A DNA stretch of 33,494 nucleotides, taken from NCBI GenBank assembly GCA_041480925.1, contig JBGPAV010000001.1, positions 1 to 33,494 of the forward strand, in the 5' to 3' direction. Below the pieces are notes generated by a model that made no database searches, had not been told where the DNA came from, and saw only the letters and a list, made by a program, of their open reading frames with translations. The stretch comes from Candidatus Bathyarchaeia archaeon. Its GTDB lineage: Archaea; Thermoproteota; Bathyarchaeia; Bathyarchaeales; Bathycorpusculaceae. The translations under genes and the position numbers were made by a program. Shown here piece by piece: positions 9,933 to 30,744 of this stretch (position 1 is the stretch's first letter; each line of letters starts with the position of its first letter).

Positions 9933-9934
9933 GG

Positions 9935-10735: not shown

Positions 10736-10737
10736 GC

Positions 10738-10905
10738 GTGTGGCTTCTGAAAAAGTGCGAGAAATGCGGAAATTATACGCTTAAGACAGATACCTGCCCA
10801 CATTGCGCCGGAAGTGTTCGTATACCCCATCCACCCAAGTTCTCGCCTGATGACAAGTACCTCAAATACAGAATGGCCTTGAAACAGGAGAGCCTGAAAA
10901 AATGA
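10738..10905 (+). CDS. nop10: H/ACA RNP protein Nop10 (55 aa; absent from the supplied ORF track)
   Basis: My hand translation from GTG 10738 gives (M)WLLKKCEKCGNYTLKTDTCPHCAGSVRIPHPPKFSPDDKYLKYRMALKQESLKK*. The C..C..YTL..CP.C...HP.KFSP.DKY..YR signature is present. The stop overlaps the next ATG (ATGA). Confidence 0.85.
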   Translation: MWLLKKCEKCGNYTLKTDTCPHCAGSVRIPHPPKFSPDDKYLKYRMALKQESLKK

Positions 10906-11675
10906 AGGAGACATTCATAAAAGAGAGTAAGGCTGTTGAACTGAACAACCCCATACTGATAGAAGGACTTCCCGGCCTTGGATTAGTCGGCAAAATAGCA
11001 ATACGCTACTTGATAAAGCAATTGAAAGCTGAAAGATTTGCCAGTCTTTACTCCCCACATTTCCCATACTTTGTGCTTGTTAGCAAAAAAGGAAGCGTAA
11101 GGCTTCTCTGCGGCTCATTCTATTCTTGGAAGAGCAAAAATGGAAAGAGTGACCTCATACTGTTCACAGGCGACAGCCAAGCCCAAACAATCGAAGGGCA
11201 ATACGAAATTTCTGATTACTTGCTTGATTTCGCAACCACTCACAAAGTGAAGATGATAATAACCATAGGCGGCTACAGAATGGAAGCGAAGGAGAAGCCC
11301 AAAGTGGTTGTGGCCGCAACGAATGAAGAACTTCTCAACAGAACCAAAGAGGCTGGAGCCATGGTGAGCCCCACCGGCAGCCCTATTGTAGGTACTGCAG
11401 GCCTGATTCTCGGAATGGCTCGCTTCAAAAAAGTTGACGCCCTGTGCCTCTTGGGCGAAACGAGAGGTTACCTACCAGACCCAAATGCTGCAAAGAGTGT
11501 TCTAGAAGTATTGCGGTCGATTCTGAAGATTGATCTAGACCTATCTGGTTTGGACGAAGAGATCGTCAAAGCAGAAAAAATGGTTACACGTCTGCAAAAG
11601 ATAGAAGAACAGAGAGTACTGCAAGCAGTGGAGACAAGAAAGGAAGAAGATAAGAAAATCACATACATTTCATGA
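10902..11675 (+). CDS. PAC2-family proteasome assembly chaperone-like protein
   Basis: LIEGLPGLGLVGKIAIRYL N-terminus. It occupies the usual position after nop10 in the conserved archaeal operon. Confidence 0.7.
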   Translation: MKETFIKESKAVELNNPILIEGLPGLGLVGKIAIRYLIKQLKAERFASLYSPHFPYFVLVSKKGSVRLLCGSFYSWKSKNGKSDLILFTGDSQAQTIEGQYEISDYLLDFATTHKVKMIITIGGYRMEAKEKPKVVVAATNEELLNRTKEAGAMVSPTGSPIVGTAGLILGMARFKKVDALCLLGETRGYLPDPNAAKSVLEVLRSILKIDLDLSGLDEEIVKAEKMVTRLQKIEEQRVLQAVETRKEEDKKITYIS

Positions 11676-11680
11676 TTTCA

Positions 11681-12772
11681 CTAGAGTCTCAATTCCTCTC
11701 TGATTATGTCTGCGATTTTGTTAGCCGCGTTTCCTTCTCCGTAAGGAGAATTGAGAGGCAACTCCTTCTGCTGAGTCAATGTTCTTTCCATAGCCTTCAA
11801 TATCGATTGCTTATCCGTTCCAACAACTTCCGCAAAACCTGTCTCAACAGCTTCTGGCCTTTCGGTTGAAAGTCGCATGACCAAAACACGTTTGCGAATA
11901 TTCGGCGCAGTGGCTTCTTCTTGTATGCCCCCAGAGTCAGTTACTATGACGCTACAGCGCTTCATGAGTACCAAGAAGTCCAGATAACCTAACGGTGGCA
12001 TGATTTGAACGTTTTTAGATGATTTGACTTTCCCGTAACTCCTGCTTTGAAGTAATTTCTTCTTCGTGCGCGGGTGCATTGGATAGACAACAGGTATAGG
12101 CGCCTCAGCGAAAGCTTCCATGAAATTTCTAAGCACCTTCAAATCATCCACATTTTCCGCTCGATGGGCAGTCGCTAAAGCAAATTTCTTGAAGTGAACT
12201 GCCTTAATGATGTCTGATTTTCTTTCCGCTATGGGCAAATGCTGGATTACTGCGTCAATAACAGTGTTGCCTGTCACGAAGGTTTTTCCCCAAACATTCT
12301 CTTTCGACAGGTTGCTTTCTGCAGTTTTTGTGGGCGCAAATAGATAGGAGGACAGGTGATCTGTTAGACGTCTATTATGCTCTTCAGGCATGCGGAGGTC
12401 AAAGCTCCTCAACCCTGCCTCAACGTGTCCAACAGGTATTCCCACTTTAACCGCGGCTAGGCTTGTCGCCAGAACCCCATTTGTGTCTCCTTCCACAAGC
12501 ACAAGTGATGGCCGTTTTTCCAAAAACAGTTTCTCCATGTGTATTATTATGCGTGCAGTCTGCATGCCTTGCGAGTATGCTCTGAGTTTGAAGCTGTAGT
12601 CAGGCGGTGGGAGTTCGAGATCTTCAATGAATTTCTGAGACATGTTGCAATCGTAATGCTGACCGCAATGAACAAAAGTGAAGGCTATTTTCTCTTTTCT
12701 CAGGGTTCTTATCAGTGGTGCCATCTTTATTATTTCCGGCCTTGTTCCAACAACGATCATCACTGACTTCAT
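11681..12772 (-). CDS. wecB: UDP-N-acetylglucosamine 2-epimerase (non-hydrolysing)
   Basis: GTRPEIIKMAPL, HVEAGLRSFD..MPEEHNR and DSGGIQEE motifs. Confidence 0.9.
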   Translation of the reverse strand: MKSVMIVVGTRPEIIKMAPLIRTLRKEKIAFTFVHCGQHYDCNMSQKFIEDLELPPPDYSFKLRAYSQGMQTARIIIHMEKLFLEKRPSLVLVEGDTNGVLATSLAAVKVGIPVGHVEAGLRSFDLRMPEEHNRRLTDHLSSYLFAPTKTAESNLSKENVWGKTFVTGNTVIDAVIQHLPIAERKSDIIKAVHFKKFALATAHRAENVDDLKVLRNFMEAFAEAPIPVVYPMHPRTKKKLLQSRSYGKVKSSKNVQIMPPLGYLDFLVLMKRCSVIVTDSGGIQEEATAPNIRKRVLVMRLSTERPEAVETGFAEVVGTDKQSILKAMERTLTQQKELPLNSPYGEGNAANKIADIIREELRL

Positions 12773-13003
12773 TCAGTTATCACTTTGAACACTCAGTATT
12801 GAAAGAGTTCGTTTTTAACGCTTCTCCGGAATACTGAATCCTTTTGCTTGGATATGATTCTGAATATTGCTGCTAGGTTTGGACTTTTGATCGACTATTC
12901 GAATCAAAATTGCCAAATTGCTTCTCTCCGTGTGACATACAAAGCACAATATTCGTCGACTCCATATCATTTTTCAAAAAACAGCGCAATTGGAGATGAA
13001 AAC

Positions 13004-13564
13004 ATGAAGCTAGCAAGGAACAGGAAAGCGTTGAGCACAGTAGTAACCACACTGATAATCCTCGTTGTCTCTGTACTACTTGCGACAGTTGTGACGTTCT
13101 ATGCGATCAACGTAACAACGACAAGAGTGCAGGAAGAGTCTCTGTTCTTGACTAAACAGCACGTTTGGTACAATACGTCAGGTTCTTGGGCTCAAGCCGC
13201 ATTAGTGATTGTGAACACTGGCGGAAGAGACGCAGTCATAGACAAGCTTTCAGTCCGAGGACAAGAATGCTCTTGGAGTAATGTCTACTTCTGGAGAACA
13301 AATGGCGTCGTCGTGACAGACGACTTGCAGGTAACGGCAACCGAGATCAGTGGAGCAACCTTCGACATAACAGTTCAGGGATCTGCACGAACTTTCAACC
13401 AGTCTACATCAGACATAACGCTAAAGTCAGGTTGGACAATAGTCATCTATGCGATGAATCCTGGCAGTATCTCACTGAACGACGTTGGATTGACAGTCAG
13501 TATAACCGCCTTCACCGCGAATGCGCAATACCACAAAGAAACAAATGTTGAGGCGGCGCAATAG
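13004..13564 (+). CDS. Archaeal type IV pilin-like protein (class III signal peptide)
   Basis: MKLARNRKA/LSTVVTTLIILVVSVLLATVV is a prepilin-type N-terminus. GGAG lies 9 nt upstream of ATG 13004. The track's 12848 start adds an implausible leader. Confidence 0.65.
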   Translation: MKLARNRKALSTVVTTLIILVVSVLLATVVTFYAINVTTTRVQEESLFLTKQHVWYNTSGSWAQAALVIVNTGGRDAVIDKLSVRGQECSWSNVYFWRTNGVVVTDDLQVTATEISGATFDITVQGSARTFNQSTSDITLKSGWTIVIYAMNPGSISLNDVGLTVSITAFTANAQYHKETNVEAAQ

Positions 13565-13602: not shown

Positions 13603-15648
13603 TCACGTTTTCTTCAGGTATCCCTCTCTTGGTTCGTAGATAGTTCCTTCGCGGAGCAATTGTCCAATGAGCCGTTCGGCTTCGCCTCTTGAAATCTTGT
13701 ACCTCTCATCTAGCTCGTTCAGCAGGGTTGTCTTCTCTACGATTCCTGTCTCTCTTTCCAGTTCCATAAGCGTTGAAAGAATTGTCTGCAGCCTGTCTCT
13801 AACGCTCTTTGGCTTCCCAGTCATTATGATGTCGATATCCATCTTGTATGAGGACAAGTCGATCCCGACTTCTTCAAGCGATCTTTTCATGATCGCAATG
13901 GCTGCTTCTGCGTCCTCAGCTTTAACCTCTTTTCTGAGTGCTGAGCGAGCGTGCGCTTCAGCTACTCGAACTAGCGATTCGAGTTGGCGTGCAGTTATGG
14001 CAACCGGCGATCCTTCAGACTCGCTTGCTGATCGCATTGCGAGATAGAAGTCATTGAGCCGTTGTACTGCTTCGGGGGTCAAAGTGGGTCGTACTCCCTT
14101 AGCGTAAGTTATGTACTTCCTGAGGAGGTCAGGCGATATTGGAGGTTCAATGGGGCTCAATCCTTTTCTATGTAATTCAAGGATATGTGCCGACATTTTT
14201 CCATCTGATTCCTTGTTCGGTACATCTCTCAAGACGAAGATCAAGTCAAATCTTGACAGTATTGTTACAGGCAGAGAGATGTTTTCCGCAACTGTGCGAT
14301 GCGATTCATATCTTCCGAGAGACGGGTTTGAGGCAGCAAGTATTGCTGTTCTGGCGTTTAGCGTAGCAACGATTCCGCCTTTGGCTATTGAGACGGTGTG
14401 CTGTTCCATGGCTTCGTGAATTGCAACTCTGTCTTCAGGTCGCATCTTATCCATTTCGTCGATGCATGCGATTCCTTTGTCAGCGAGTACTAATGCTCCA
14501 GCCTCGAGATTCATTCCTCCACCTTTGTCTCTTATGACGGCCGCTGTCAGGCCTGCGGCAGTCGTGCCACGTCCTGAAGTGTACAGTCCGCGCGGCGCGA
14601 TTCTTGACACGTATTGCAGAAGTTGAGATTTTGCGGTTCCTGGATCTCCAACTAAGAGAGCGTTTATTTCTCCTCTGATTGTTATGTCTGGAAGGCTTTT
14701 TCCCACGCCGCCAAAAAGAAGGTACATTATTGCTTCTTTAATGTGCTCGTATCCGTAGATCGAGGGGGCGATGGATGCCACTATCTTCCTGTGTATCCAG
14801 GGGTCTTTTGCCAGTTCAAGGATTTTTTCTTCTTCTTCGGGTGTTGGGAGTGCTGTTTCGGGTTCCTTGTCTAGCACCTCGATTGAGTTGACGTCCAGGT
14901 AAAGCATGAATGTACGGAGTTTGCCGACGCCGCCCGGGCCAGCCGTCGAGAAAGCACGCACTATTCCAACTATCGAAATGTGGTCGCCAGGCCTCGCTAC
15001 GTCCACTACTTCCGTTCCAATAAGTTTGGCGTTTAGTGTTCGTGGAAGCTGTCCAGGCGGAAGGTCTTCTGGTCGCTCCTGTATCCTTAGGTCTTGGGAA
15101 TCTACGAATGTGGATTCTTCTTGGATGAAGTCGAATGGTCCTTTTGCAGCGCATGATGGGTTGCTGCAAGCGAATGGTGCCTTGACAAACTGACCTGTCT
15201 GGTTTACAGGGGTCATCTCGCCGCAACGTTTGCATTTGAACGCTGCCTGCATCACCATCGGGCGGACCGGTGTTGAGCGGACAACAATTCCTTCTACCAT
15301 GACAAGTTTTCCAATGTGATTAGAGCCGAGTTTCCTAAGCTGCGCAGCTTCTAGCAGCTTTACGATTCTAACTGATAGCGTCTGCGCTTCGAGTTTCTCG
15401 GCGTATTCAGGGTCTTCTATTCGTAGTTGATCATATGCTGCGTTGTTTGCATGTTTCAGATATTCACTTTGTCTTTCCAGCAGTGTTTCAGCGAGTTTTT
15501 GGTCAAAAACTAGGAGATCCTCAAAGTCGATTATTAATGATGTCTTGCCTGCTACAGCCATCTGGGCTATTCTTTGGCGATACTTTTCCGTCTTCAGAAA
15601 TTCTTGGAACTGTTCTTGCGGGTCAACTGTTTCCAGTTCTTCTGTCAT
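13603..15648 (-). CDS. mcm: Replicative helicase MCM
   Basis: Zn motif CKRCGE..CSNPSC, Walker A GDPGTAKSQLL, Walker B CIDEMDKM and Arg finger SRFDLIF. Confidence 0.95.
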   Translation of the reverse strand: MTEELETVDPQEQFQEFLKTEKYRQRIAQMAVAGKTSLIIDFEDLLVFDQKLAETLLERQSEYLKHANNAAYDQLRIEDPEYAEKLEAQTLSVRIVKLLEAAQLRKLGSNHIGKLVMVEGIVVRSTPVRPMVMQAAFKCKRCGEMTPVNQTGQFVKAPFACSNPSCAAKGPFDFIQEESTFVDSQDLRIQERPEDLPPGQLPRTLNAKLIGTEVVDVARPGDHISIVGIVRAFSTAGPGGVGKLRTFMLYLDVNSIEVLDKEPETALPTPEEEEKILELAKDPWIHRKIVASIAPSIYGYEHIKEAIMYLLFGGVGKSLPDITIRGEINALLVGDPGTAKSQLLQYVSRIAPRGLYTSGRGTTAAGLTAAVIRDKGGGMNLEAGALVLADKGIACIDEMDKMRPEDRVAIHEAMEQHTVSIAKGGIVATLNARTAILAASNPSLGRYESHRTVAENISLPVTILSRFDLIFVLRDVPNKESDGKMSAHILELHRKGLSPIEPPISPDLLRKYITYAKGVRPTLTPEAVQRLNDFYLAMRSASESEGSPVAITARQLESLVRVAEAHARSALRKEVKAEDAEAAIAIMKRSLEEVGIDLSSYKMDIDIIMTGKPKSVRDRLQTILSTLMELERETGIVEKTTLLNELDERYKISRGEAERLIGQLLREGTIYEPREGYLKKT

Positions 15649-16214
15649 TCTTCAGTCTCCTCGTATTCCAGTATTTGCATCCGCCAATCGCTTATCACTG
15701 AATGGAGTTGGTCGTAGAGATATCTTTCTTCCTTCGTGAAGTTTTTGAGAGTGTGCTCTGTTTGAGCTGGAGCAGAGGCGATTGAAACGATTTTCCTCAA
15801 CCTAGAGTTCACAATATCTCTGATTAGCTGTCTAGCTTTCTCGCATTCCAGCATCCGCTCAGGAGCTCTTGCGGAATCTCTCCTTAAACTGGCTAGGCAT
15901 CGCCTCATTTTTGGATAAAAATCATCAGGCAGTCTCGACATCTGCCCGGCTGTCTGAACCCGTTCTGTCCATTGAACTTTATTGAGCTTTGCAGTGTTAA
16001 GGTTTTCATCCTCGCGGAAATGGACGATTCCTGACTTTTCAAGTTCCTGAGCTACCCAGTACTGAGTTTCATATTCGTTTCCTTCTTCAAGAGGGCCTAT
16101 GGTCAATCCTGCAAGCTTGATCTCAGGACAATTCCTGTTAGCAACAATCTTTACAGGTGAATGTTCAAAGTTGAAATCTAAATGTGCGATTCTTTTGGAG
16201 ACTGTTTTGGGCAC
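15645..16214 (-). CDS. gins23: GINS subunit Gins23 (B domain then A domain)
   Basis: N-terminal small beta domain (IKLAGLTIGPLEEGNEY..WVAQELEKSGIV), then an A domain with LPDDFYPK and RLRKIVSIA. There is a 4-nt ATGA overlap with mcm. Confidence 0.7.
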   Translation of the reverse strand: MPKTVSKRIAHLDFNFEHSPVKIVANRNCPEIKLAGLTIGPLEEGNEYETQYWVAQELEKSGIVHFREDENLNTAKLNKVQWTERVQTAGQMSRLPDDFYPKMRRCLASLRRDSARAPERMLECEKARQLIRDIVNSRLRKIVSIASAPAQTEHTLKNFTKEERYLYDQLHSVISDWRMQILEYEETEE

Positions 16215-16365: not shown

Positions 16366-17628
16366 TTATGGCCACAGCCCTAGCGTTATTATGGCGTCAG
16401 CTACTCTTCCAACGCCCAGCATCAGTGCCGCTGTTCTCGTGTCGCATTCTTCTTTCTTGGATACCTTGTAGACATCATTGAAGGCTCTGACCATCTTGCT
16501 TTCCAGTTTTCGGTTTACCTCTTGCGCTGTCCAGTGTTCTCGTGTCAGGTTTTGAACCCACTCGAAGTAGCTTGTCGTGACTCCGCCTGCGTTGGCTAGA
16601 ATGTCTGGTATGAGAACTGTGCCCTTTTCGTGGAGGATTTTGTCTGCTTCTGGTGTGGTTGGTCCATTTGCGCCTTCTGCGACTATCTTTGCCTTGATCT
16701 TATCTGCATTGGCCTTGGTGATTTGGTTTTCCAATGCTGCAGGAATAAGAATGTCACATTTTGTTTCGAGCACGTCTTCATTTGTGATGTGTTCGCATCC
16801 TTTTTCACACTTTTTGTAATCAACCACAGAGCCTGTTTTGGATTTGTGTTCTTGTACATCGTAGGGGTTCAGGCCTTTTGAGTTGTACATTCCGCCCATT
16901 GAATCGCTTACTGCCACGATCTTGGCTCCCATGTCGTGTGCTATTTTGGCTGCGTTCATGCCTACGTTTCCGTATCCCTGGACCGCCACTGTTGCTCCCT
17001 TAAGCTTTAAATTCAAATGCTTGGCTGCTTCTCTCGCGCAAACCACGACGCCTAGCGAGGTCGCTTGCTCCCTCCCTTCTGAACCGCCGATACTGATGGG
17101 TTTTCCAGTAACGCATTCTGGAACACTGTAGCCAGTTATTTGGCTGTAAGTGTCCATTATCCAGGCCATTGTCTGAGCGTCCGTGTACACGTCAGGTGCC
17201 GGCACATCGCGGTGTGGTCCGATGAAGTCGTAGAGAAGGCTCGTATATCGTCGTGTCAGTCTTTCAAGTTCGCCTTTTGACATTTGCTTCGGATTACAGG
17301 TGATTCCGCCTTTTGCACCTCCGTACGGAATGTCCACGACTGCACATTTCCACGTCATCCACATTGACAGCGCTGTGACTTCGTCCAGTGTGACATTTGG
17401 ATGGTAACGTATTCCTCCTTTGTACGGTCCTCTTGCATCCCAATGCTGCACTCGACATCCAGTGAAAACATCAGTCTTCCCGTTGTCCATTTTTACCGCG
17501 ACAGAAACGATAAGTGACCTCTTAGGATGAGCCAGCAATTCATGCATGCTGGGGTCAAGTCCCAGTTTTTTAGAAGCAATTTTTAGCTGTTCCAAAGCGA
17601 CTGTTAAGGCTGTATGTTCTTTTCCCAT
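16366..17628 (-). CDS. gdhA: Glutamate dehydrogenase (about 420 aa, hexameric class)
   Basis: KGGIRYHP, GGAKGG (catalytic Lys region) and VAVQGYGNVG dinucleotide fold. I prefer ATG 17628, which has AGGAGG 6-7 nt upstream, over the track's 17646. Confidence 0.95.
   Translation of the reverse strand: MGKEHTALTVALEQLKIASKKLGLDPSMHELLAHPKRSLIVSVAVKMDNGKTDVFTGCRVQHWDARGPYKGGIRYHPNVTLDEVTALSMWMTWKCAVVDIPYGGAKGGITCNPKQMSKGELERLTRRYTSLLYDFIGPHRDVPAPDVYTDAQTMAWIMDTYSQITGYSVPECVTGKPISIGGSEGREQATSLGVVVCAREAAKHLNLKLKGATVAVQGYGNVGMNAAKIAHDMGAKIVAVSDSMGGMYNSKGLNPYDVQEHKSKTGSVVDYKKCEKGCEHITNEDVLETKCDILIPAALENQITKANADKIKAKIVAEGANGPTTPEADKILHEKGTVLIPDILANAGGVTTSYFEWVQNLTREHWTAQEVNRKLESKMVRAFNDVYKVSKKEECDTRTAALMLGVGRVADAIITLGLWP
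16642..16716. repeat. 75-nt tract nearly identical (74/75, inverted) to 21741-21815 in the paralogous gdh
   Basis: My hand reverse-complement alignment found a single C/T mismatch. The tract encodes KANADKIKAKIVAEGANGPTTPEAD in both genes. Confidence 0.9.
17153..17220. repeat. 68-nt tract nearly identical (67/68, inverted) to 21249-21316 in the paralogous gdh
   Basis: My hand reverse-complement alignment found a single G/A mismatch. The tract encodes GPHRDVPAPDVYTDAQTMAWIMD in both genes. Confidence 0.9.
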
Positions 17629-17718
17629 AAGATTTCCTCCTTTCATCGTAGTTTATCTGCTTGGCTGGCTGTTAAATTTAAGGATTACTTAAGAAAGTGA
17701 AAGAAAAAAAGGATGGAG

Positions 17719-19326
17719 TTAGTCAAGTATTCTCTCGATGGCATCCTTTTCTACTTCGTCTGCCATCGGTATACCCGTGACTCTTGCTGCGGTTTCATTC
17801 AAGCTCATCAAATCATTTCTGCTGATGAGGTCCAGCTTCCATCTTCTGCTACCTGCTAGCAGCTGTTTTAGGCCAACACCTATGCGATCCGTCAGGTACG
17901 TGTGGACTGCTATGGCTTCCCATGGTATTTCTTTGAAGCGTTCGCCGTACTTTGCTTTCAGCTCTGGAGTAGCAATGAAGAACTTTTCAGGTGTAGAGCC
18001 AAATCTGTCAGCGAAAGTTTTAGGCAATTTGCCTTCTTCAGCCAATTGCTTGAAGTAGCTTCCCTTGAATGCTGCTGTTATCGGTGAGCGTCCCATCAGG
18101 ACTGCCTTGACAAAAGGTCCGTTGCCAAAGTTGCTCAGCGCGATGGACTTGTAGATTTGGGTTTCGTTGATGAAGCCTCCAGCCATGATTAGGTCAGGAA
18201 CGTATCTGCCCTTCTTCTTTAGCAGTTGTGCACATCTTAGAACTATGGCTTGCAGATAGACTGTTGGAATGCTCATTTCGTCCATCATTGGCACTGGGCT
18301 CATGCCTGTTCCGCCTCCTGCTCCGTCGAAGTATACTGCGTCGATTTTCGCTTCTGACGCCATCTTCATTGTGTACGCACAGGCTACGGGTCTGTATGCG
18401 CCAGTTTTGAGCGTTACATGCTTTGCGCCTTGTTTTCTCAGCCATTCTATGTCTTCTACGAAGCTTTTCTGCTTCGGTATGCCTACCCTGCTGTGCCTTT
18501 CGAAGGTTTTGAAGACTCCTTCTTTGAAGGCTTGCTGTATTACCGGGTCTTCTGGATCTGGAATCACTATGTAGCCTCTTTTCTTCAGCATAATAGCTTT
18601 CTCAAGGTCTCTTACTCGGACTTCGCCGCCTATGGCCTTTGCGCCTTGTCCCCACTTTCTTTCTATGACATTCACTTCCAGTTTCGAGATTGCGTAGACG
18701 TCAACTCCTAGCCTTTGGTCTTCGACGTTTGTTTGCACGGCTATTTCTCCGTATTTTCCGTCCCAGAACTTTCGGAATAAGTCTACTCTTCGCTTCAGTT
18801 CTTTCGAGTAGGTGACTTTGCCATTTGTTATCTGTGCTTCTGGATCCATGCCGCAGACGTTTTCGCCAACTATCACTGATACTCCTGAGAGAGCTGAGCC
18901 TATGGCTAGGCCTTCCCAGTTTAGTCTTGCGACGTCGGTTGAGCCGAAGGCACCGCATAGTACTGGCACTTTTAAAGGTACGCCTCCGACTTTGGTTTCT
19001 GTGCTTGCATTCGGGAAGGTGGCTACGTCAGAATTCTCCTCTATGCCTAGAACCTCGAATAGGCCTGCTTGAATGTTGAAGTGGGACCAGTCTAGTCCAA
19101 AGTCTTTGAGGGCTCCTGCTGTGCTGTAGCCAAATTGGGCTGGTTCTGGGTAGAGGGCTTCTCTTCCTCTGAAGGCAGATAGGCTGATTTCGCATAGGAC
19201 CGGACAGTCTCGGATGCATATGGGGCACATTCCGCTCGTTGGGCTTGTGTCTTTTACTCTTGTTGTTGTTCCACAAGTTGATTTTCCGTTCAAATAGGCA
19301 CTGTTTCTATGTACACGTTCACTCAT
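17719..19326 (-). CDS. Glutamate synthase FMN-binding-domain protein (GltB domain 2-like, stand-alone) with an N-terminal Cys cluster
   Basis: DGAGGGTGMSP (FMN-domain signature), TIM-barrel-like length, and an N-terminal CPICIRDCPVLC (CxxCxxxCxxxC). GGAGAGG lies upstream of the ATG. Confidence 0.8.
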   Translation of the reverse strand: MSERVHRNSAYLNGKSTCGTTTRVKDTSPTSGMCPICIRDCPVLCEISLSAFRGREALYPEPAQFGYSTAGALKDFGLDWSHFNIQAGLFEVLGIEENSDVATFPNASTETKVGGVPLKVPVLCGAFGSTDVARLNWEGLAIGSALSGVSVIVGENVCGMDPEAQITNGKVTYSKELKRRVDLFRKFWDGKYGEIAVQTNVEDQRLGVDVYAISKLEVNVIERKWGQGAKAIGGEVRVRDLEKAIMLKKRGYIVIPDPEDPVIQQAFKEGVFKTFERHSRVGIPKQKSFVEDIEWLRKQGAKHVTLKTGAYRPVACAYTMKMASEAKIDAVYFDGAGGGTGMSPVPMMDEMSIPTVYLQAIVLRCAQLLKKKGRYVPDLIMAGGFINETQIYKSIALSNFGNGPFVKAVLMGRSPITAAFKGSYFKQLAEEGKLPKTFADRFGSTPEKFFIATPELKAKYGERFKEIPWEAIAVHTYLTDRIGVGLKQLLAGSRRWKLDLISRNDLMSLNETAARVTGIPMADEVEKDAIERILD

Positions 19327-19413
19327 TCTTTCCTCTCCTTTACATCCGCAAATTTTTAGAGGATAGGAGTAATCTACGTTAGAATTTAAATATTGCCTTA
19401 AAACCTCTCAAAA

Positions 19414-19433
19414 ATGAACATGTATGAACATGG
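19414..19433. promoter_or_regulatory. Tandem 10-nt repeat ATGAACATGT/ATGAACATGG (two TGAACAT heptads), upstream of the GltS-like gene
   Basis: It lies 88-107 nt upstream of ATG 19326 (minus strand), distal to an AATATTTAAAT TATA-like box at about 19383-19394. It shares the 12-mer ATGTATGAACAT with 20295-20306. Confidence 0.5.
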
Positions 19434-19448
19434 AAACTCTCGCAATCA

Positions 19449-20198
19449 TCAGTCTATTAGAATCCTGATCTTGGAGCCTTTCACAGTGTATTCGTGACGC
19501 TGGAAAGTTTTCGAGTCATAACGCCAGCCAGCCTCTTTGACTTCAATAAATCTCTTAGCTCCTTCTTTGGACAATTCGATAACTACCTGTGTGATATGTT
19601 CGATAAGAGCGCAGAACTCTTTAGGGTGGGCATTCTTTGCGAGCGTCCAACTGGCCAACGTGTTATAGGCATACAGTGCAGGGCAAACGTGAGCGAAGAA
19701 TCCTTTAACCGTCTCGCGTCCCCAAACCTGCTCCATCAATGACAAGCTGTTGAAAACAAGCCTCGTACCTGATGTTACGAATTCCCTTTCAACTCTTCCG
19801 AAGAATCTATGGAATTGTTCAGGGTCTTTTGAGCTCGGGACTTTTCTAATCCAAGATGGTGCCTTATCGTAGAAGTCACTGAATATAAGTTCACCTTGGC
19901 CAGAGGATTCAGAGAAACAGTCCAAAACAAGAAGCTTGCTTTCCCATCCTGATGGAAAAGTCTCGATCAAAGGTTTCAGCTGCAACATCAGGGCCTGTGG
20001 AGGATATAAGAAATCAAGATATATAACTTGGCTTCCTTCAACTATGCCTTGTTTGATGAAAGCATAAATGAATTCACACGCAAGTGTTCCAGACTCAATT
20101 TCCCATAAAACGTTTTCACCCAAGAAAAGGCCGCCGCCGAGAAGCTCATCCAACGTCTCTATTCCTGTTGACAGCATTTGATTTCCTTGTTTATTCAC
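19449..20198 (-). CDS. KaiC/RecA-fold protein lacking a Walker A P-loop (probable pseudo-ATPase)
   Basis: STGIETLDELLGGGL..G matches the KaiC/RadA-like N-terminus. The position of GxxGxGKT reads IESGTLAC. LLVLD (Walker B-like) is retained. Confidence 0.6.
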   Translation of the reverse strand: MNKQGNQMLSTGIETLDELLGGGLFLGENVLWEIESGTLACEFIYAFIKQGIVEGSQVIYLDFLYPPQALMLQLKPLIETFPSGWESKLLVLDCFSESSGQGELIFSDFYDKAPSWIRKVPSSKDPEQFHRFFGRVEREFVTSGTRLVFNSLSLMEQVWGRETVKGFFAHVCPALYAYNTLASWTLAKNAHPKEFCALIEHITQVVIELSKEGAKRFIEVKEAGWRYDSKTFQRHEYTVKGSKIRILID

Positions 20199-20260
20199 CT
20201 TGGGTCTCCGTCTTTTGAATGATATCTAGGCGATAAAAACGTTTAGGTGTGTCGAGGGCT

Positions 20261-20306
20261 GTTCAATGGTGTACATAATGTACATAACGTTTCTATGTAT
20301 GAACAT
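20261..20306. promoter_or_regulatory. Composite element GTTCAA-n3-TGTACAT-n2-TGTACAT-n14-TGAACAT in the divergent KaiC-like/gdh2 intergenic region
   Basis: It has the same architecture and the same 9-nt heptad phasing as 22151-22186. The outer GTTCA...TGAAC arms are inverted. Confidence 0.55.
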
Positions 20307-20345
20307 TGCCTTATGTATCTTGCACAAAATGGAGGAATGAAGTAA

Positions 20346-22133
20346 ATGCTAACTTCAGTAGAGTTGTCAGGAAGAGAACTTGGAATGATAAAACTGATGG
20401 CTGACTTTTTCGTTGAAAAACCCGAGTTAACCGCAAAAATCGAGAGCTACACAACAGCCTACTATGCCCTCATGACTACATATTCAGAGAACTTTGGAAT
20501 TCCGACAGAAGATGCATGGAAGACGTTCGAGGAGCTTGAAAAGAAACTCGATGGGGCAAAAGACATACGTGTCGAGGCGCCGTCACCTATCAAGAAATGG
20601 TACTCGTTGTCTACGGAAGAAATAAACATGATCCGCGTGCTGATTGACTACTTCTCAGAGAATCCCAAAATGACTCCCACAAGCTCGTTCATTGCCAACA
20701 GGTCAGAATCTATCATCGAAGCCTACAAATGGTTTTTCGGAACAACTGAAGGTAATGGCGAATACGCAAGGGAAAGCTTCAACAACCTAATGGAAAAGAT
20801 ACAAGCTGCAACATCAATCAAACTCGACACATTAGCTCCAGTCATGGCCACGCCAAACCCTTACGAAGCTGTCCTGCAGCTTCTGCAGCTCGCCGCAAAG
20901 AAGCTGAACCTAGACCCAGGATTGCATGAAATGCTGAAGCGCCCAATGAGAACTCTCATCGTCAACATCCCAATAACGATGGACGATGGAAGCATACAAG
21001 TCTTCACTGGCTACCGTGTACAATACAATGACTTGCTAGGTCCAACGAAGGGCGGCATAAGATATCACCCAGAACTGACGCTGGACGAAGTCATAGCTTT
21101 GTCCGCTTGGATGACCTTCAAGACTGCGGTAACAGGTCTGCCTCTTGGAGGCGGCAAGGGCGGAATACGCTGCAATCCGAAAGAGATGTCTCAAAATGAG
21201 CTAGAAAGACTGACCAGAGGCTATGCCCGTGCTATGGTGCGCTTCATAGGACCACACCGCGATGTGCCGGCACCTGACGTGTACACAGACGCTCAGACAA
21301 TGGCCTGGATAATGGATGAATACAGCGAAATGGTAGGATACAATGTTTTCGGAGTAGTCACTGGAAAACCAGTGCATGTCGGCGGTTCACTGGGCAGGAA
21401 TGAGGCAACGTCCAGAGGCGTGATGTACACTGTTATCGAGGCTGCAGAGCATCTCGGCATAAAGCTGAAAGGTTCTACAGTGGCAGTGCAGGGCTACGGC
21501 AACGTTGGATACCATGCTGCTCGGCTGCTCAATGAAATCGGATGCAAGATCATAGCAGTCTCAGATTCAAAAGGCGGAATCTACAATCCGAAAGGATTTG
21601 ATCCAATGAAAGCCTTAGAACACAAGAACCGAACTGGCTCTGTCGTTGACTTTGAAGACTGCAAGAACATAACGAATGAAGAACTGCTAGAAGTGGAATG
21701 CGACATTCTCGTTCCATCTGCTCTAGAGAGCCAAATCATCAAGGCCAATGCAGATAAGATCAAGGCAAAGATAGTTGCAGAAGGCGCAAATGGACCAACC
21801 ACACCAGAAGCAGACGAAATACTGTTCAAAAATGGAATCTTCGTCATCCCAGATATCCTAGCAAACTCTGGCGGTGTGATTGTCAGCTACTTCGAGCAGG
21901 TGCAGAACCAGATGAACTACTACTGGCCCGAAGACGAAGTGCGGGAGAAACTGAAAAACACGATAACCAAAGCATTCAAGGATGTTCTGGCAATATCTCA
22001 GCAGTACAACGTGAACATGCGTGTGGCTGCCTACATGAGCGCAGTCAAGAGAGTCACTGATGCCATGCTTACTCGCAAGCACAAAACAGTCAGCCCAATC
22101 CCCGAACCAAAGGCAACAGTTCAAAGCAAATGA
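20346..22133 (+). CDS. Glutamate dehydrogenase paralog with a 166-aa N-terminal extension (two tandem RHH-like repeats)
   Basis: The GDH core carries KGGIRYHP, GGGKGG and VAVQGYGNVG. The frame is continuous from ATG 20346 (GGAGG at 20331-20335). An in-frame ATG at 20844 sits at the start of the GDH core. Confidence 0.9.
   Translation: MLTSVELSGRELGMIKLMADFFVEKPELTAKIESYTTAYYALMTTYSENFGIPTEDAWKTFEELEKKLDGAKDIRVEAPSPIKKWYSLSTEEINMIRVLIDYFSENPKMTPTSSFIANRSESIIEAYKWFFGTTEGNGEYARESFNNLMEKIQAATSIKLDTLAPVMATPNPYEAVLQLLQLAAKKLNLDPGLHEMLKRPMRTLIVNIPITMDDGSIQVFTGYRVQYNDLLGPTKGGIRYHPELTLDEVIALSAWMTFKTAVTGLPLGGGKGGIRCNPKEMSQNELERLTRGYARAMVRFIGPHRDVPAPDVYTDAQTMAWIMDEYSEMVGYNVFGVVTGKPVHVGGSLGRNEATSRGVMYTVIEAAEHLGIKLKGSTVAVQGYGNVGYHAARLLNEIGCKIIAVSDSKGGIYNPKGFDPMKALEHKNRTGSVVDFEDCKNITNEELLEVECDILVPSALESQIIKANADKIKAKIVAEGANGPTTPEADEILFKNGIFVIPDILANSGGVIVSYFEQVQNQMNYYWPEDEVREKLKNTITKAFKDVLAISQQYNVNMRVAAYMSAVKRVTDAMLTRKHKTVSPIPEPKATVQSK
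21249..21316. repeat. Partner of 17153-17220 (67/68 identity, inverted)
   Basis: Same evidence as for 17153-17220. Confidence 0.9.
21741..21815. repeat. Partner of 16642-16716 (74/75 identity, inverted)
   Basis: Same evidence as for 16642-16716. Confidence 0.9.
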
Positions 22134-22139
22134 CTTCCC

Positions 22140-22145
22140 TTTTTT
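22140..22145 (+). terminator. T6 tract 7 nt after the gdh2 stop, a candidate terminator
   Basis: TGA 22131-22133 is followed by CTTCCCTTTTTTC. This places the next gene under its own promoter. Confidence 0.4.
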
Positions 22146-22150
22146 CTATT

Positions 22151-22186
22151 GTTCAACGTGTACATTGTGTACATGTCTGTGAACAT
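22151..22186. promoter_or_regulatory. Composite element GTTCAA-n3-TGTACAT-n2-TGTACAT-n5-TGAACAT upstream of the RHH-protein gene
   Basis: The heptads start at 22159, 22168 and 22180. The second TGTACAT ends 54 nt before ATG 22228, compared with 61 nt for the gdh2 copy. Confidence 0.55.
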
Positions 22187-22227: not shown

Positions 22228-24162
22228 ATGTCTGTTCATCTCCATACTACTCTGAGAAAGAAAACAGATGACATGATTGAGGAATTGGCGAAGACTTACG
22301 GAACCAAGAGCCGAGTCATTGAACAAGCAATCGAGACGCTACTCAGAGTTGAAAGAGTCGGCTCCTGCGAGGACTGCGCAATAAAAGCAAAGATGAATGA
22401 ACAAGTGAACCTAAGAGAAGCTCTGGACTTAACGTCAATTGGAAGGAAAATGGCTGACAGTCTTCTGGAAGTGGCGGTCGGAGACAAGACAGTTCAGGAT
22501 TTTATTGCCGAGGAAAGGACGGAGGCAAAGAACACTATTGAGGTTCTAAAAGGTTCAATGGCGTGGAAAGCCCCCTCCAACTTCAAAGAGTTCATGACGA
22601 TTTTCGAAGAATTGATGAGTCTGACTCGGCTTTTCGAAATCGCTTCTCACAGTGAGATGGAAAACACGATAATCCTGAGACCGCGCGTCTTCAAACGCCT
22701 GCCTGAGCTTGTTGCCTTTCAATTGGCGGTCATACTTGAAGGTCTGCAGATATCTTTCGACATAAGAATAATGGGAGAAGATGTCGCTATCAAGTTAACA
22801 AGACAAGAACTCTACGCCATGAGGAAGAAGGAGTTTGGCGAAATATTCAATGAACAAATCGAGAGAAGACTTTCTGATTCTACCCCGGGGCTTTTCAGGG
22901 ATACTTTGATCCTGGTCGGACCGGCCTTCATGAACTGGGCCGAAAAACATCTTGAGGAACCTATAACCGATCTAAGCTCGTTCATAGAAGATGTGAAAAC
23001 CGTTCTTGGCAAGGACGAGCTTCCATCCCAGCCTAGAGAATTTGTGAAAAGCCTGTTATCTGCGTTTATAAAAATGAACTGGTTTAAGCAAGCAAAGATA
23101 CTGCAAGAAGTTGATGAGAAGACTCTGGATTTGTCTTTTCAAGCAACTATGCCTTCAGTCGCCAAACTTGCGATTCTAGTGTTGTCAGTCATATTTGCGA
23201 CCCGTGGTTGGAAAGTTGTGAAATTCTCCGCTGAACACACGTCAGTCAATCTTACGATCCAATTCGTCGGTTTGGAAGATCAAAGCTTGCTTGATCAGGT
23301 GGTTGAGCTTAGCCTCTATCAAACCGTAGGCAAGCAATTCCTAGACGTTATGCCAGTTCCAAGAGAAGTTTTCAACTCTTTTGCTTCCAAAGTCTACGAA
23401 ACTGATAAGGAGAGATTCTCTGAAATATACCGAAATATGGGCGTTGGGGTTGCCAGTGCCGTCCGCCTACTTGCAAGAAATGACCCGGGGAAAATCAAAA
23501 AGTTGTCTCAAACACTTATCCTCAAGAACCTAGGGTCTATGCAGCCTGATGCGGAGATCCGGTTTGTCGATGATGAACATTTTACCATAATTTTCAAGAA
23601 AATCGACTTTCTGGTTGTCAATAGCCAACGTACTTTCATCGAATCTCTGTTCAAAGAACTTGGATACGAAATCTCGACGACGGTTTTCCAGAACCTATTG
23701 AGCTTCAAGCTCAAACCATTGGAGAAACCGATTCTTGAACCTGTGCCCACAAAGAAGATAATGCAGAGCCTGATAGGCGAGATGTCTGCAAATTCCTGTG
23801 ATGAAGCTTTTGAATTGATAAAAGAGCAGCTTGATCAAATGTTTCCAGAAGATTATCCATGGACCTTAAAAGAGGTTGGCGATAGGCTCATCGAGATATA
23901 CCGCGAAATAGGGATAGAAGTTGAAATCGAGTATTTCGAAGGAGGCTTCACACTCAAGTACAGGACATGTCCGTACTACAAATTGGTTAAATCTGGACAG
24001 AAGACGTGGCTTTGTAATCTTCGCAAGAAGACGATAGATTACATCCTTTTGCGAGTTTCACATGGAAAGAAGGCAAAGATAAAGATCATCAAGTCCTTGC
24101 TCAAGAATGAACATCCTTGCGAATATGCCGTGTTCTTAACAGGGTTCTTGGAAGAGGAATAG
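22228..24162 (+). CDS. 644-aa protein of unknown function: N-terminal ribbon-helix-helix DNA-binding domain plus four V4R-like modules (the last is Cys-containing)
   Basis: VHLHTTLRKKTDDMIEELAKTYGTKSRVIEQAIETLL fits the beta-alpha-alpha RHH pattern (CopG/Arc-like). The C-terminal TCPYY..WLCN..HPCEY resembles V4R-type ligand-binding domains. The family assignment is tentative. Confidence 0.5.
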   Translation: MSVHLHTTLRKKTDDMIEELAKTYGTKSRVIEQAIETLLRVERVGSCEDCAIKAKMNEQVNLREALDLTSIGRKMADSLLEVAVGDKTVQDFIAEERTEAKNTIEVLKGSMAWKAPSNFKEFMTIFEELMSLTRLFEIASHSEMENTIILRPRVFKRLPELVAFQLAVILEGLQISFDIRIMGEDVAIKLTRQELYAMRKKEFGEIFNEQIERRLSDSTPGLFRDTLILVGPAFMNWAEKHLEEPITDLSSFIEDVKTVLGKDELPSQPREFVKSLLSAFIKMNWFKQAKILQEVDEKTLDLSFQATMPSVAKLAILVLSVIFATRGWKVVKFSAEHTSVNLTIQFVGLEDQSLLDQVVELSLYQTVGKQFLDVMPVPREVFNSFASKVYETDKERFSEIYRNMGVGVASAVRLLARNDPGKIKKLSQTLILKNLGSMQPDAEIRFVDDEHFTIIFKKIDFLVVNSQRTFIESLFKELGYEISTTVFQNLLSFKLKPLEKPILEPVPTKKIMQSLIGEMSANSCDEAFELIKEQLDQMFPEDYPWTLKEVGDRLIEIYREIGIEVEIEYFEGGFTLKYRTCPYYKLVKSGQKTWLCNLRKKTIDYILLRVSHGKKAKIKIIKSLLKNEHPCEYAVFLTGFLEEE

Positions 24163-24296: not shown

Positions 24297-25268
24297 TTGA
24301 GCTTTGAGATGTGGGCTGAGAAATATCGGCCGAAATCATTGGAGGCCATAGTTGACCAGAAAGAGATAGTTGATCGCCTCAAGAGCTTTGTGAAAGCAAG
24401 GAACGTGCCGCACTGTATCCTTGCTGGTCCACCTGGAACAGGAAAGACCACCGCAGCACTCTGCTTGTCAAGGGATCTGTACGGTGATGCCTACAGGGAA
24501 CACACTATGGAGTTAAACGCAAGCGACGAAAGAGGCATTGATGTTGTACGAGAAACTGTGAAAACCTTCGCCCGAGTGAAGTCTATTGGTGAAATCCCAT
24601 TCAAGATAATGATTTTGGATGAAGCGGATAACATGACTTCAGACGCTCAGCAAGCTTTGAGGAGGACGATGGAGCGGTATACTGGGACATGCAGGTTCAT
24701 AATGTGCGCAAATTACAGCGGAAAAATTATAGAGCCGATTCAGTCAAGATGCGCGCCTTTCAGATTCTCATACTTACCCAGAAAAGAACAAGACGCGTAT
24801 CTAAATCAGATAGCCGAGAAAGAGAAAATCAAACTGACAGTCGACGGTCTAGACGCCATCTTTGAAGTCTGTGGCGGAGATCTAAGAAAGGCTATAAATA
24901 CTCTGCAGGCAGCCACATCTTTAGAGAAGCCCGTAGATGCCAAGGTTGTTTACTCAATTGCGGGAAAAGCAAGTCCTGCTGACGTGCAAAAAATGCTGAA
25001 AACCGCCATGGATGGCAACTTCATTGAATCCAGAAAACAGCTACGTGACATGATTCAAAAATATGGCGTTGCCGGTAGCGACATAATACGTCAGATTCAT
25101 TCGGAAATCTTCAGAACCGAGATTCCTGAACCTTGGCGCATAAAACTAGCTGGCATTATAGGCGAAGTCGACTACAGACTTGTCGAAGGTGCAGACGAAG
25201 AGGTTCAGCTAAGCGCGTTGTTAGCGAGACTTGTTGAAGCTGGCTCTGAATTGAAGAAGGCACACTAG
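24297..25268 (+). CDS. rfcS: Replication factor C small subunit
   Basis: WAEKYRP, Walker A GPPGTGKTT, ILDEADNM and the SRC motif (QSRCAPFRF). The start is TTG 24297 (10 nt after GAGGAG) or ATG 24309. Confidence 0.95.
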   Translation: MSFEMWAEKYRPKSLEAIVDQKEIVDRLKSFVKARNVPHCILAGPPGTGKTTAALCLSRDLYGDAYREHTMELNASDERGIDVVRETVKTFARVKSIGEIPFKIMILDEADNMTSDAQQALRRTMERYTGTCRFIMCANYSGKIIEPIQSRCAPFRFSYLPRKEQDAYLNQIAEKEKIKLTVDGLDAIFEVCGGDLRKAINTLQAATSLEKPVDAKVVYSIAGKASPADVQKMLKTAMDGNFIESRKQLRDMIQKYGVAGSDIIRQIHSEIFRTEIPEPWRIKLAGIIGEVDYRLVEGADEEVQLSALLARLVEAGSELKKAH

Positions 25269-25278
25269 GTGCAGACTT

Positions 25279-26538
25279 TTGTACGCTTCTTGGGTCATCA
25301 AACACAAACCAAGATCTTTAAACCAGATCATCGGAAATAAAGAAACCATCCAGAAACTTGCCGATTGGGTCAAAGCTTGGAGCAAAGGCGTACCTCCTAA
25401 GAGAGCTGTTTTTTTATATGGGCCTCCTGGAATTGGCAAGTCCATAACTGTTGAGGCTTTAGCCAATGACCTAGGAATGGAGCTTGTGGAGAAAAATGCA
25501 AGCGACTATAGAACTGAAGATGCCGTGAATCGCTTCGCTGGACTGGCCTCGCAGTTTGGTTCACTGTTTGGCGGAAGAAGAATAGTTTTGCTGGATGAGC
25601 TTGACGGATTAATTGGAACGGCAGACAAGGGCGGAGTGAAAGCAATAACAGAAGTTGTCAAAGTCGCACAATGTCCAATCATCCTTATCGCAAACAGTGC
25701 TTACGAACCCAAATTCACGAACTTGCGCATTTACTGTCTTTTGCTAGAGTTCAAGAAGCCGCCTATTGGAGAAGTCGCGAAACTGTTGAAAGGAATATGT
25801 GACGTTGAAGGCATTCAAGCCGATGAAAACGCGTTGAAGTTTATTGCGCAACGCTCTGAAGGTGACGTGCGATCTGCGGTGAATGACCTTCAGGCTTTGG
25901 CTCAAGGCAAAAAGAAGCTAGGTTATGAGGATGTTTCTTGGCTCGGATACAGGGATAGGCAGGACACGATCTTCAACGTTCTGAAGCTGATCATCTATGG
26001 CAAGACTTGCGCCAGCGCGAAACAGGCAGTTAACATGGCTGACATTGACATCGACATGCTTTTTGAGTGGATTTATGAGAACATTCCTGACCATTTCACT
26101 GATCCGCATGATTTGGCACAGGCAATGGACGCTCTTTCAACCGCGGACTTGTACAGAGGGAGAATACGTGCCACGCAAAACTGGAGTTTTACACGCTACG
26201 TCATTGACTACATGACTGCCGGCGTGGCTATGGCCCGCCAAAACTCCAAGACATCTGGCTGGATACCATTCAAGTTCCCAAGTCGCATTCAAATGCTGTC
26301 TCGATCTAGAAGCGAAAGAGCAATGCAGTCGAGTATTGGACAAAAAATCAAAAGAAGATGTCATGTTTCTGCTGTCAGAGCCTCAAAGGAAATTCTGCCA
26401 TACCTAAAGATAATCTTCAAAAACAACGCAGAAATAGCCGCTGGACTCGCTAAGTGGCTTGATCTGGATCAGGAAATGATAACTTACATTGTCGGCAGCG
26501 ACGAGAAGGCAGAGGCTATAATGAAACTGTTGAGTTGA
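25279..26538 (+). CDS. rfcL: Replication factor C large subunit
   Basis: W.IKHKPRSL, Walker A YGPPGIGKS, LLDELD and GDVRSAVNDLQ. The start is TTG, 10 nt after the rfcS stop. Confidence 0.85.
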   Translation: MYASWVIKHKPRSLNQIIGNKETIQKLADWVKAWSKGVPPKRAVFLYGPPGIGKSITVEALANDLGMELVEKNASDYRTEDAVNRFAGLASQFGSLFGGRRIVLLDELDGLIGTADKGGVKAITEVVKVAQCPIILIANSAYEPKFTNLRIYCLLLEFKKPPIGEVAKLLKGICDVEGIQADENALKFIAQRSEGDVRSAVNDLQALAQGKKKLGYEDVSWLGYRDRQDTIFNVLKLIIYGKTCASAKQAVNMADIDIDMLFEWIYENIPDHFTDPHDLAQAMDALSTADLYRGRIRATQNWSFTRYVIDYMTAGVAMARQNSKTSGWIPFKFPSRIQMLSRSRSERAMQSSIGQKIKRRCHVSAVRASKEILPYLKIIFKNNAEIAAGLAKWLDLDQEMITYIVGSDEKAEAIMKLLS

Positions 26539-30447: not shown

Positions 30448-30744
30448 CTACACCAGTTCCAACCAGTATTACATAATACTGCTTTAAGTTGCTTTTTCTT
30501 CCGCTGAATTATGATCAGAAGAAGACGGCGCTTGCAGAATTTCTTCTCCTACTTGTTTGAGCGCGCTTTATCGATAGCCTTTAACCAAACAAAAATGGCA
30601 AATTCAATGTTGTTGTTGCCAAAGCCATGAGCGAAGCATGTGAACTTTGGAAAGTTGCTTCAAATGTGCTTGCACAGAGACAACGTACCATTCTTAGAAA
30701 GCAGAAACAATAGTTAAGATGAATGATAAAAGGTAAAGTTTAAA

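Follow-up and report, generated by a model that had tools for sequence, protein, structure and literature searches.

Several well-described regulators act through short repeated sites in promoters. NikR of E. coli recognizes the operator GTATGA-N16-TCATAC, and the ribbon-helix-helix (RHH) proteins Arc, MetJ, CopG and omega, which measure 45-105 aa and lack sensor domains, recognize short palindromic or pseudopalindromic units, one per beta-ribbon dimer, that are contiguous or 8-11 bp apart in direct or inverted arrays and also serve to autoregulate the regulator gene. In nitrogen metabolism, NrpR (GGAA-N6-TTCC) and Bacillus TnrA and GlnR (TGTNA-N7-TNACA) bind palindromic operators at the promoters of glnA, glutamate dehydrogenase (GDH) and glutamate synthase (GOGAT) and repress by promoter occlusion. 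Bathyarchaeia rank with the most abundant archaea of sediments and are essentially uncultivated; to our knowledge, none of their transcription regulators, operators or regulons has been characterised. Here we describe an array of TGTACA-like hexamers, found in a stretch of 33,494 nt of Candidatus Bathyarchaeia archaeon DNA (GCA_041480925.1, JBGPAV010000001.1, positions 1-33,494; hereafter the window, which covers about 33 kb of the genome). The hexamers lie upstream of the genes for a long GDH (GDHL), a glutamate-synthase-like protein (GltSl) and an uncharacterised 644-aa protein, X644. We conclude, with high confidence, that they form a real operator array, that this array is strongly conserved and that it marks out a small regulon of glutamate metabolism; operator arrays are a known kind of feature, and it is the regulator family and the operator architecture that are uncharacterised.

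The arrays resemble the NikR operator in having two 6-bp sites about two helical turns apart and in overlapping core promoter elements and, if the analogy extends to the protein, X644 would also have dimeric N-terminal heads spaced by an oligomeric C-terminal ligand-sensing body, as a one-component sensor. In contrast to NikR, X644 has neither an NikR_C/ACT-like domain in Pfam or NCBIfam nor an RHH match at threshold, and is about five times larger; the arrays contain extra sites at 9-10 bp in both direct and inverted orientation, the promoters are of the archaeal type with B recognition element (BRE) and TATA box, and the targets concern glutamate metabolism, not nickel. With Arc, MetJ, CopG and omega the arrays share short palindromic units, mixed orientation and a site-bearing regulator gene; the small size and close unit spacing of those systems differ from the long protein and the 19-21-bp spacing here, and the omega heptads, WATCACW, are unlike the hexamers. 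The NrpR, TnrA and GlnR operators are palindromic and serve comparable promoters; however, their motifs and spacings differ from those here, their protein families (NrpR and MerR-type) are unrelated and X644 is similar to neither. The window encodes nothing resembling NrpR, and its operator is TGWACA-based. The operators of the YefM-YoeB and Axe-Txe antitoxins contain TGTACA core hexamers repeated in the promoter and mediate autorepression (PMC7730913, PMC3760812). This core is identical to ours and is likewise repeated in the promoter, a likeness of sequence only; in contrast to X644, the binder there has the Phd/YefM fold, the genes form a bacterial toxin-antitoxin module and the hexamers are centred about 12 bp from one another. 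The window contains no toxin-antitoxin genes, the downstream genes being those for GDHL, X644 and GltSl, and the shared TGTACA is a sequence coincidence between different protein folds. The array and X644 thus belong to none of the NikR, NrpR or YefM/Phd systems. In the literature we found no archaeal TGTACA operator, no RHH regulator of GDH and no Bathyarchaeia regulator, the bacterial YefM/Axe operators being the only match.

The three elements and the genes around them are as follows.
Element A, 20260..20305, + strand: hexamers H1 TGTTCA (20260-65), H2 TGTACA (20270-75), H3 TGTACA (20279-84) and H4 TGAACA (20300-05), in the intergenic region between the divergent KaiC-like and GDHL genes.
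Element B, 22150..22185, + strand: TGTTCA (22150-55), TGTACA (22159-64), TGTACA (22168-73) and TGAACA (22180-85), upstream of X644.
Element C, 19415..19430, - strand: two hexamers with 10-bp start-to-start spacing, ccaTGTTCAtacaTGTTCAtttt read in the GltSl direction, upstream of GltSl.
GltSl, 17719-19326, - strand: glutamate-synthase-like gene, 535 aa (Pfam Glu_synthase PF01645, E = 3e-9), putative target of element C.
KaiC/RecA-like ATPase gene, 19449-20198, - strand (Pfam PAXNEB/KaiC).
GDHL, 20346-22133, + strand: long GDH, 595 aa (Pfam ELFV_dehydrog and ELFV_dehydrog_N; NCBIfam GdhA_Arch), putative target of element A.
X644, 22228-24162, + strand: uncharacterised 644-aa protein with no Pfam or NCBIfam match, candidate regulator and putative target via element B.

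An initial annotation had described these elements as phased TGWACAT heptads, and the sequences it gave were found as described: GTTCAA at 20261-66, TGTACAT at 20270-76 and 20279-85 and TGAACAT at 20300-06 in element A; GTTCAA at 22151-56, TGTACAT at 22159-65 and 22168-74 and TGAACAT at 22180-86 in element B; and the tandem ATGAACATGT/ATGAACATGG at 19414-33 in element C, which shares the 12-mer ATGTATGAACAT with element A (19420-31 and 20295-306). The eight TGWACAT copies, all on the + strand, are present across the three elements, and the gaps of 61 and 54 nt to the ATGs of GDHL (20346) and X644 (22228) are also correct. The window contains 25 copies of TGWACAT, where shuffled sequence gave 9.1 +/- 3.1, and none of 100 shuffles reached 25. 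The composite motif TGTACATNNTGTACAT matched exactly only at 20270 and 22159, groups of at least two TGWWCA hexamers no more than 25 nt apart occurred in the window only at elements A, B and C, and the two clusters of four hexamers were not reached in any of 500 first-order Markov simulations (P < 0.002). The proposal that the heptad is the unit gave way to a hexamer, or to an octamer, the palindrome ATGTACAT, of which the hexamer is the core; the TGTACA hexamer is itself palindromic.

A metagenome scan with the X644 alignment yielded 80 loci (959 kb) with an X644 homolog 56-99% identical. The core in which the KaiC-like gene diverges from GDHL and X644 was syntenic in 80 of 80 loci, and the pair of GltSl and a short GDH gene had been relocated in several. 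Hexamer clusters numbered 194 in these loci, 178 of them at the same three orthologous promoters (X644, 77; GDHL, 60; GltSl, 41) and 16 elsewhere in the 959 kb. A 22-kb locus on a 2.17-Mb contig (ERZ25039515:contig_12658) contained precisely the same three clusters. The initial annotation had named comparable density in unrelated intergenic regions, or lack of conservation in orthologous promoters, as findings that would speak against it; arrays were absent from unrelated intergenic regions, both in the window and in the 959 kb of relatives, and conservation was strong across loci in which the downstream protein was 56-99% identical. The hexamers of elements A and B were the most conserved columns within otherwise diverged intergenic DNA, with unconserved flanks. 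Among 56-65 distinct sequences, the core hexamers of A and B other than the proximal B hexamer were at or near full information, and H1, H3 and the C hexamers were variable. The deeply conserved spacing was 19-21 bp, with additional A sites at 10 and 9 bp; the core spacing is therefore about two helical turns and not the 9 nt first proposed. This promoter specificity and orthologous conservation support the earlier suggestion that the elements are sites for a dimeric regulator with a small regulon.

That the repeats are not regulator sites at all, and arose by chance, from a mobile element, as core promoter elements, as replication-origin boxes or as an RNA element, we consider extremely improbable. 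Chance was excluded by the shuffles and Markov simulations, and the repeats are orthologously conserved and not dispersed; a reading as miniature inverted-repeat transposable elements was rejected together with the core-promoter and origin readings. One element B hexamer does occupy the BRE position; however, the promoters of the short GDH, RFC and GINS/MCM genes, in at most 28 related loci each, have a normal BRE/TATA (gtaaNcYTTAAAT) and no conserved hexamer or hexamer pair, and the hexamers are not a core promoter element, since they stand at a different place with respect to the TATA box in each of the three promoters. The flanking replication genes for primase, GINS, MCM and RFC would suit an origin, a reading against which it counts that the window contains no orc1/cdc6 gene by Pfam annotation and no boxes like the origin recognition box, and that the hexamers occupy three distinct promoters and follow their genes on relocation. 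No Rfam family reached its gathering threshold on either strand of the window and most sites lie upstream of the putative start sites.

We next place the hexamers relative to BRE and TATA boxes, which we assigned from sequence with the hexamer-free promoters as template. In element A the hexamers start at 0, 10, 19 and 40 bp, and the 46-bp block aligned without gaps in 56 distinct orthologous sequences, with conservation falling sharply on either side and the consensus TGTtCA...gTGTACATtATG.ACATAA.gTTTCTATAtTTGAACAT. The outer GTTCA...TGAAC pair ascribed to this element is present in the window sequence; it is not a general feature, H1 being TGTACA in other clades. The putative GDHL BRE/TATA, ataacgTTTCTATG (20284-20297), is bracketed by H3 and H4, H3 abutting or overlapping the BRE and H4 falling downstream of the TATA box, ahead of the expected start site. 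H1 and H2 lie upstream. The divergent KaiC-like promoter has a putative BRE/TATA of its own, CCTAAACGTTTTTATC (20232-20247, minus strand), about 12 bp from H1; its block GTTAAAAAYGTTTAGG is conserved and has no hexamers. The KaiC-like gene was divergent from GDHL without exception in the 80 loci. As a separate observation, this ATPase might share the regulation of GDHL or act together with the regulator.

In element B the last hexamer abuts the putative TATA box TTTAAGAG (22188-95), which places the proximal TGAACAT at the BRE position. The deep consensus from 65 distinct sequences was aTGTACAt-N13/14-TGAACAt-N2-3-TTTAAAAG; each position of the proximal hexamer TGAACA was 94-97% identical, and the distal TGTACA was found in nearly all sequences with its register shifting by one base. 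The likeness of A and B and their shared 9-nt phasing, stressed by the initial annotation, stood in the window's own narrow clade (L001-L003), the only one with four B hexamers at 9-bp phasing, and failed beyond it. The most distant loci had TGTACA-N14-TGTTCA-N6-TGAACA. In L006 and L007 element B contains a perfect 26-bp palindrome, TGTTCAcagaa-N4-ttctgTGAACA (full sequence TGTTCACAGAATGCGTTCTGTGAACA), and L168 carries a near-perfect copy with a single mismatch in the inner arm.

The element C pair ends 24 nt upstream of the putative GltSl TATA box, which is given here with its context.
Putative GltSl TATA box ATTTAAAT, 19384..19391, - strand: preceded by BRE-like aaggcaat; gtaaYgYTTAAATg in orthologs.
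The hexamer-free neighbouring promoters have the same TATA form as GltSl. Element C was conserved as TGT[TA]CA-N4-TGT[TA]CA in most orthologous promoters, with ccaTGTTCA-N4-TGTTCAtttt kept about 25 nt upstream of the TTTAAAT box; it accompanied GltSl after relocation of the gene (L046, L080) and was missing only in the most divergent loci. The GltSl orthologs are 45-99% identical, with the alignment beginning at residue 1. The initial annotation had asked how the repeats lie relative to BRE and TATA, and from the assignments above they overlap or flank these elements in A and B, whereas those of C are placed upstream.

Other features were noted at the start of GltSl. A clade-conserved block occupies its 5' leader before the ATG (19327-19365, minus strand; consensus gtttgcaaatgtaaaggtg, window atttgcggatgtaaaggag) and exceeds the length needed for a Shine-Dalgarno site. 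In about two-thirds of orthologs, codons 4-6 (19309-19315), CGT GTA CAY, give a TGTACA that lies 10 nt inside the gene; synonymous variants occur, and the hexamer could be either an additional weak site or mere codon choice. The run GTTCAA...TGTACA...GTTCAC at 19289-19322 was not counted as a site, since it lies within the GltSl coding region and its TGTACA is partly conserved at synonymous positions.

In archaea, repression is exerted from sites on the BRE/TATA itself or in the stretch from the TATA box to the start site, by blocking TBP/TFB binding or RNA polymerase recruitment, and sites upstream of the BRE often activate. The GDHL promoter has sites of both repressing kinds, one overlapping the BRE and one following the TATA box ahead of the start site, and repression is predicted there. 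At the X644 promoter, with its proximal site at the BRE position beside the TATA box, negative autoregulation is predicted. At the GltSl promoter the pair precedes the TATA box by about 25-45 bp, as is typical of archaeal activators, and may activate. Combined, the three promoters would place glutamate synthesis and GDH under reciprocal control.

As to the protein that binds the hexamers, X644 is our favoured candidate, and we think it somewhat probable that it is the binder. X644 invariably adjoins the GDHL gene in the 80 loci and has sites in its own promoter, and the target functions are coherent (GDH, a glutamate-synthase-like enzyme and, in the relative L076, glnA). The window encodes no recognised transcription factor by Pfam or NCBIfam, and X644 is the local candidate. 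With a similar degree of confidence, we read the hexamers, as cores of ATGTACAT, as operator sites for a lineage-specific regulator of a glutamate/nitrogen regulon, with X644 its likeliest binder.

The N-terminus of X644 is near-invariant in the clade, MSVHLHTTI..KT...L.ELAKTYGTKSRVIEQA.ETLLRVE.VGSC.DC, in a pattern typical of RHH-like domains, in which a strand is followed by helix A, then a G-T-K-S turn, then helix B. When aligned with a set of RHH proteins by hhalign, it gave a probability of 34%, which rose to 68% (E = 4.8e-5) with diverse paralogs included and with the three elements in register. Individual fragments gave sub-threshold Pfam matches to RHH_3 (E = 0.0027, in 2 of 14 fragments), ParD (E = 0.056) and PSK_trans_fac. 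From these weak matches we regard a ribbon-helix-helix domain at the X644 N-terminus as likely, and as tentative. The C-terminal body matched MetOD1 weakly (E = 0.024) and, by Foldseek on a low-confidence model, H-NOX (E ~0.04), and X644 has an invariant set of Cys and His residues (C47, C50, C581, C596, H629 and C631). We propose that a dimeric X644 N-terminal module, probably RHH, would read one hexamer through the invariant strand H4-L-H6-T7-T8, and that the C-terminal body, with its weak V4R/H-NOX/MetOD1-like similarity and its Cys/His set, would oligomerise and hold two heads about two helical turns apart, an arrangement that would account for the 19-22-bp spacing. The additional hexamers at 9-10 bp would then allow cooperative occupancy. 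We place less confidence in the RHH fold and in the sign of regulation at each promoter than in X644 as the binder.

Relatives of X644 are few, 42 among 1.84 billion representative proteins, and its remote paralogs, of 490-530 aa, have the same N-terminal module. Three of these paralogs (P0146, P0147 and P0157) end in a Response_reg receiver domain (E = 1e-17 to 5e-23), and the genes for P0126 and P0134 are divergent from a stand-alone Response_reg gene, which in L161 and L162 (P0126) is followed by a HisKA kinase gene. Because the paralogs carry or adjoin two-component modules, the shared N-terminus would act as the output module of signalling proteins. Upstream sequence could be read at five paralog loci, and four of these had TGWACA or ATGTGCAT boxes at a spacing of about 20 bp, for the most part in the promoter of the paralog itself:
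L164 (P0122), own promoter: TGAACA, TGAACA, TGTACA and TGAACA at 20, 22 and 22 bp.
L166 (P0155), own promoter: ATGTTCA...ATGAACAT...ATGTTCAT, with four more hexamers upstream of the adjacent AFOR operon.
L161 (P0126), both flanking intergenic regions: ATGTGCAT pairs 19 bp apart.
L163 (P0134), own promoter: two copies of gTATGCACAT.
The locus L169 offered only 21 nt of upstream sequence. Paralogs with the strand VRLHTT pair with TGTGCA cores and those with VHLHTT with TGWACA cores, which suggests, from few cases, that reading strand and site co-vary among the paralogs. Two side observations concern these loci: in L161 (2261-3826) the divergent response regulator is accompanied by a HisKA/HATPase kinase, and an hdrA/FlpD-like operon downstream has paired ATGTGCAT boxes; in L163 (3473-3859) a response regulator is divergent from the paralog, and a TFIIB gene lies 3' of the paralog. 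Chances are about even, in our judgment, that X644 and its roughly 40 relatives make up a so far unrecognised family of archaeal signalling regulators, in which an RHH-like N-terminal output module is joined to V4R/MetOD1-like sensor domains or to a receiver and reads ATGTRCAT-type boxes spaced by two helical turns; in Bathyarchaeia, X644 would then be the master switch between GDH and a GOGAT-like enzyme.

Several points weigh against X644 as an RHH regulator of these sites. The RHH set used with hhalign was compiled by hand, and X644 has no match at threshold in Pfam, NCBIfam or the PDB. When X644 residues 18-45 were searched against PDB sequences, the helix-hairpin-helix of LigA scored better (E ~0.004) than ParD (E = 0.086), and residues 63-98 gave a weak HHH_5 match; the N-terminus may thus possibly be a helix-hairpin-helix that binds DNA non-specifically. 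The AlphaFold model of the N-terminus is helical and of low confidence (predicted local distance difference test score, pLDDT, 34-54), and pLDDT values of 56 for the full-length protein and 54 for residues 1-105 are too poor to settle the N-terminal fold. The X644 gene sits among replication genes. Finally, no clear array was found at L165, a paralog with the strand SRIQTVITP, or at L167, an ortholog of P0122.

These points bear on a second reading, that the hexamers are genuine operators bound by a factor encoded elsewhere, for example one of the Lrp/AsnC, TrmB or MarR type responsive to amino acids or nitrogen, and that X644 is a co-regulated target, possibly a helix-hairpin-helix DNA-associated or sensor protein. 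Site conservation and specificity are independent of the identity of the binder, the helix-hairpin-helix matches to the X644 N-terminus score no worse in the PDB than the RHH matches, the window covers just about 33 kb of the genome and in L168 Lrp/AsnC-type genes lie about 8 kb away (20179-21417, beside a SHMT gene). However, those AsnC genes have no counterpart at the corresponding place in the window (30448-30744), and the window encodes no recognised transcription factor; nor does an unrelated global factor predict the hexamer pairs beside X644 paralogs at four independent loci of other genomic context, and the paralogs fused to receivers indicate that the N-terminus they share has a regulatory output function. 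We regard this reading as possible and rather doubtful, and retain X644 as the candidate binder.

The GDHL protein itself could be involved as a trigger enzyme whose N-terminal extension binds the hexamers or the regulator and couples the state of the enzyme to transcription, as Bacillus subtilis RocG does in controlling GltC. The extension, about 170 aa (20346-20880), consists of two copies of an approximately 80-aa helical domain (27% identity, E = 5e-9), and is kept in all related loci and lacking from the short GDH paralog; it belongs to no known family, and the GDHL gene always lies beside arrays. It has no Pfam match and no DNA-binding signature, nothing favours it as a partner of the regulator, and the paralog loci with hexamer arrays have no GDH; we consider this possibility very improbable.

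Within the available DNA, the regulon would comprise GDHL, X644 and GltSl, with glnA added in one relative. In L076, glnA (2100-3461) lies directly 3' of X644, and a hexamer array at 1806-1875 (ATGTTCAT...TTGAACAaATGTTCAT...TGTTCA) lies about 260 nt upstream of the glnA ATG. Surveying 80 glnA loci of Bathyarchaeia species representatives, we compared upstream regions in the 73 with a complete 5' end. None of the 73 had a hexamer array upstream of glnA, a count that is uninformative here, as it was not determined whether those genomes encode X644; several of the 73 promoters had a single, conserved, TGAACA-like tTGAACAtTTATC beside a different palindrome, GATAAAcTTATATA. The link of glnA to the regulon comes from the single locus L076. 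As an observation in its own right, many Bathyarchaeia glnA promoters (L081-L160) contain, about 60-120 nt upstream, a module tTGAACAtTTATCtA-N9-11-GATAAAcTTATATAtGTTTA followed by the conserved leader tttCCATAACATATGgAaA; it resembles a separate operator and is possibly an RNA element.

The remaining genes around the glutamate island are listed here.
MCM gene, 13603-15648, - strand (Pfam).
GINS gene, 15645-16214, - strand (Pfam).
Short GDH gene, 16366-17646, - strand (Pfam).
RFC small and large subunit genes, 3' of X644, + strand (Pfam).
Replication genes surround the island (primase small subunit, GINS51, MCM, GINS23 and RFC small and large, at 6408-8187, 13603-16214 and 24297-26538). An insert of about 3 kb between X644 and the RFC small-subunit gene, absent from the window, is present in several relatives, among them the closest (93% identical) (L002, 5543-8577; L011, L013 and L079, about 9933-13037; also L017 and L043).

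The locus offers a sharply defined operator, a coherent set of targets and a specific candidate regulator without annotated domains, and the question of binding can be addressed in vitro with recombinant protein and probes of about 50 bp, with no need for culture. If X644 does not bind, the operator would still be usable as bait for the true factor. If it does, X644 would found a regulator family of its own, the paralogs that end in a receiver would number among the few archaeal response regulators whose output is DNA binding, and the arrays would provide a handle for predicting nitrogen regulation in metagenomes. Were X644 the master switch that we propose, it would be the first nitrogen/glutamate regulator proposed for Bathyarchaeia.

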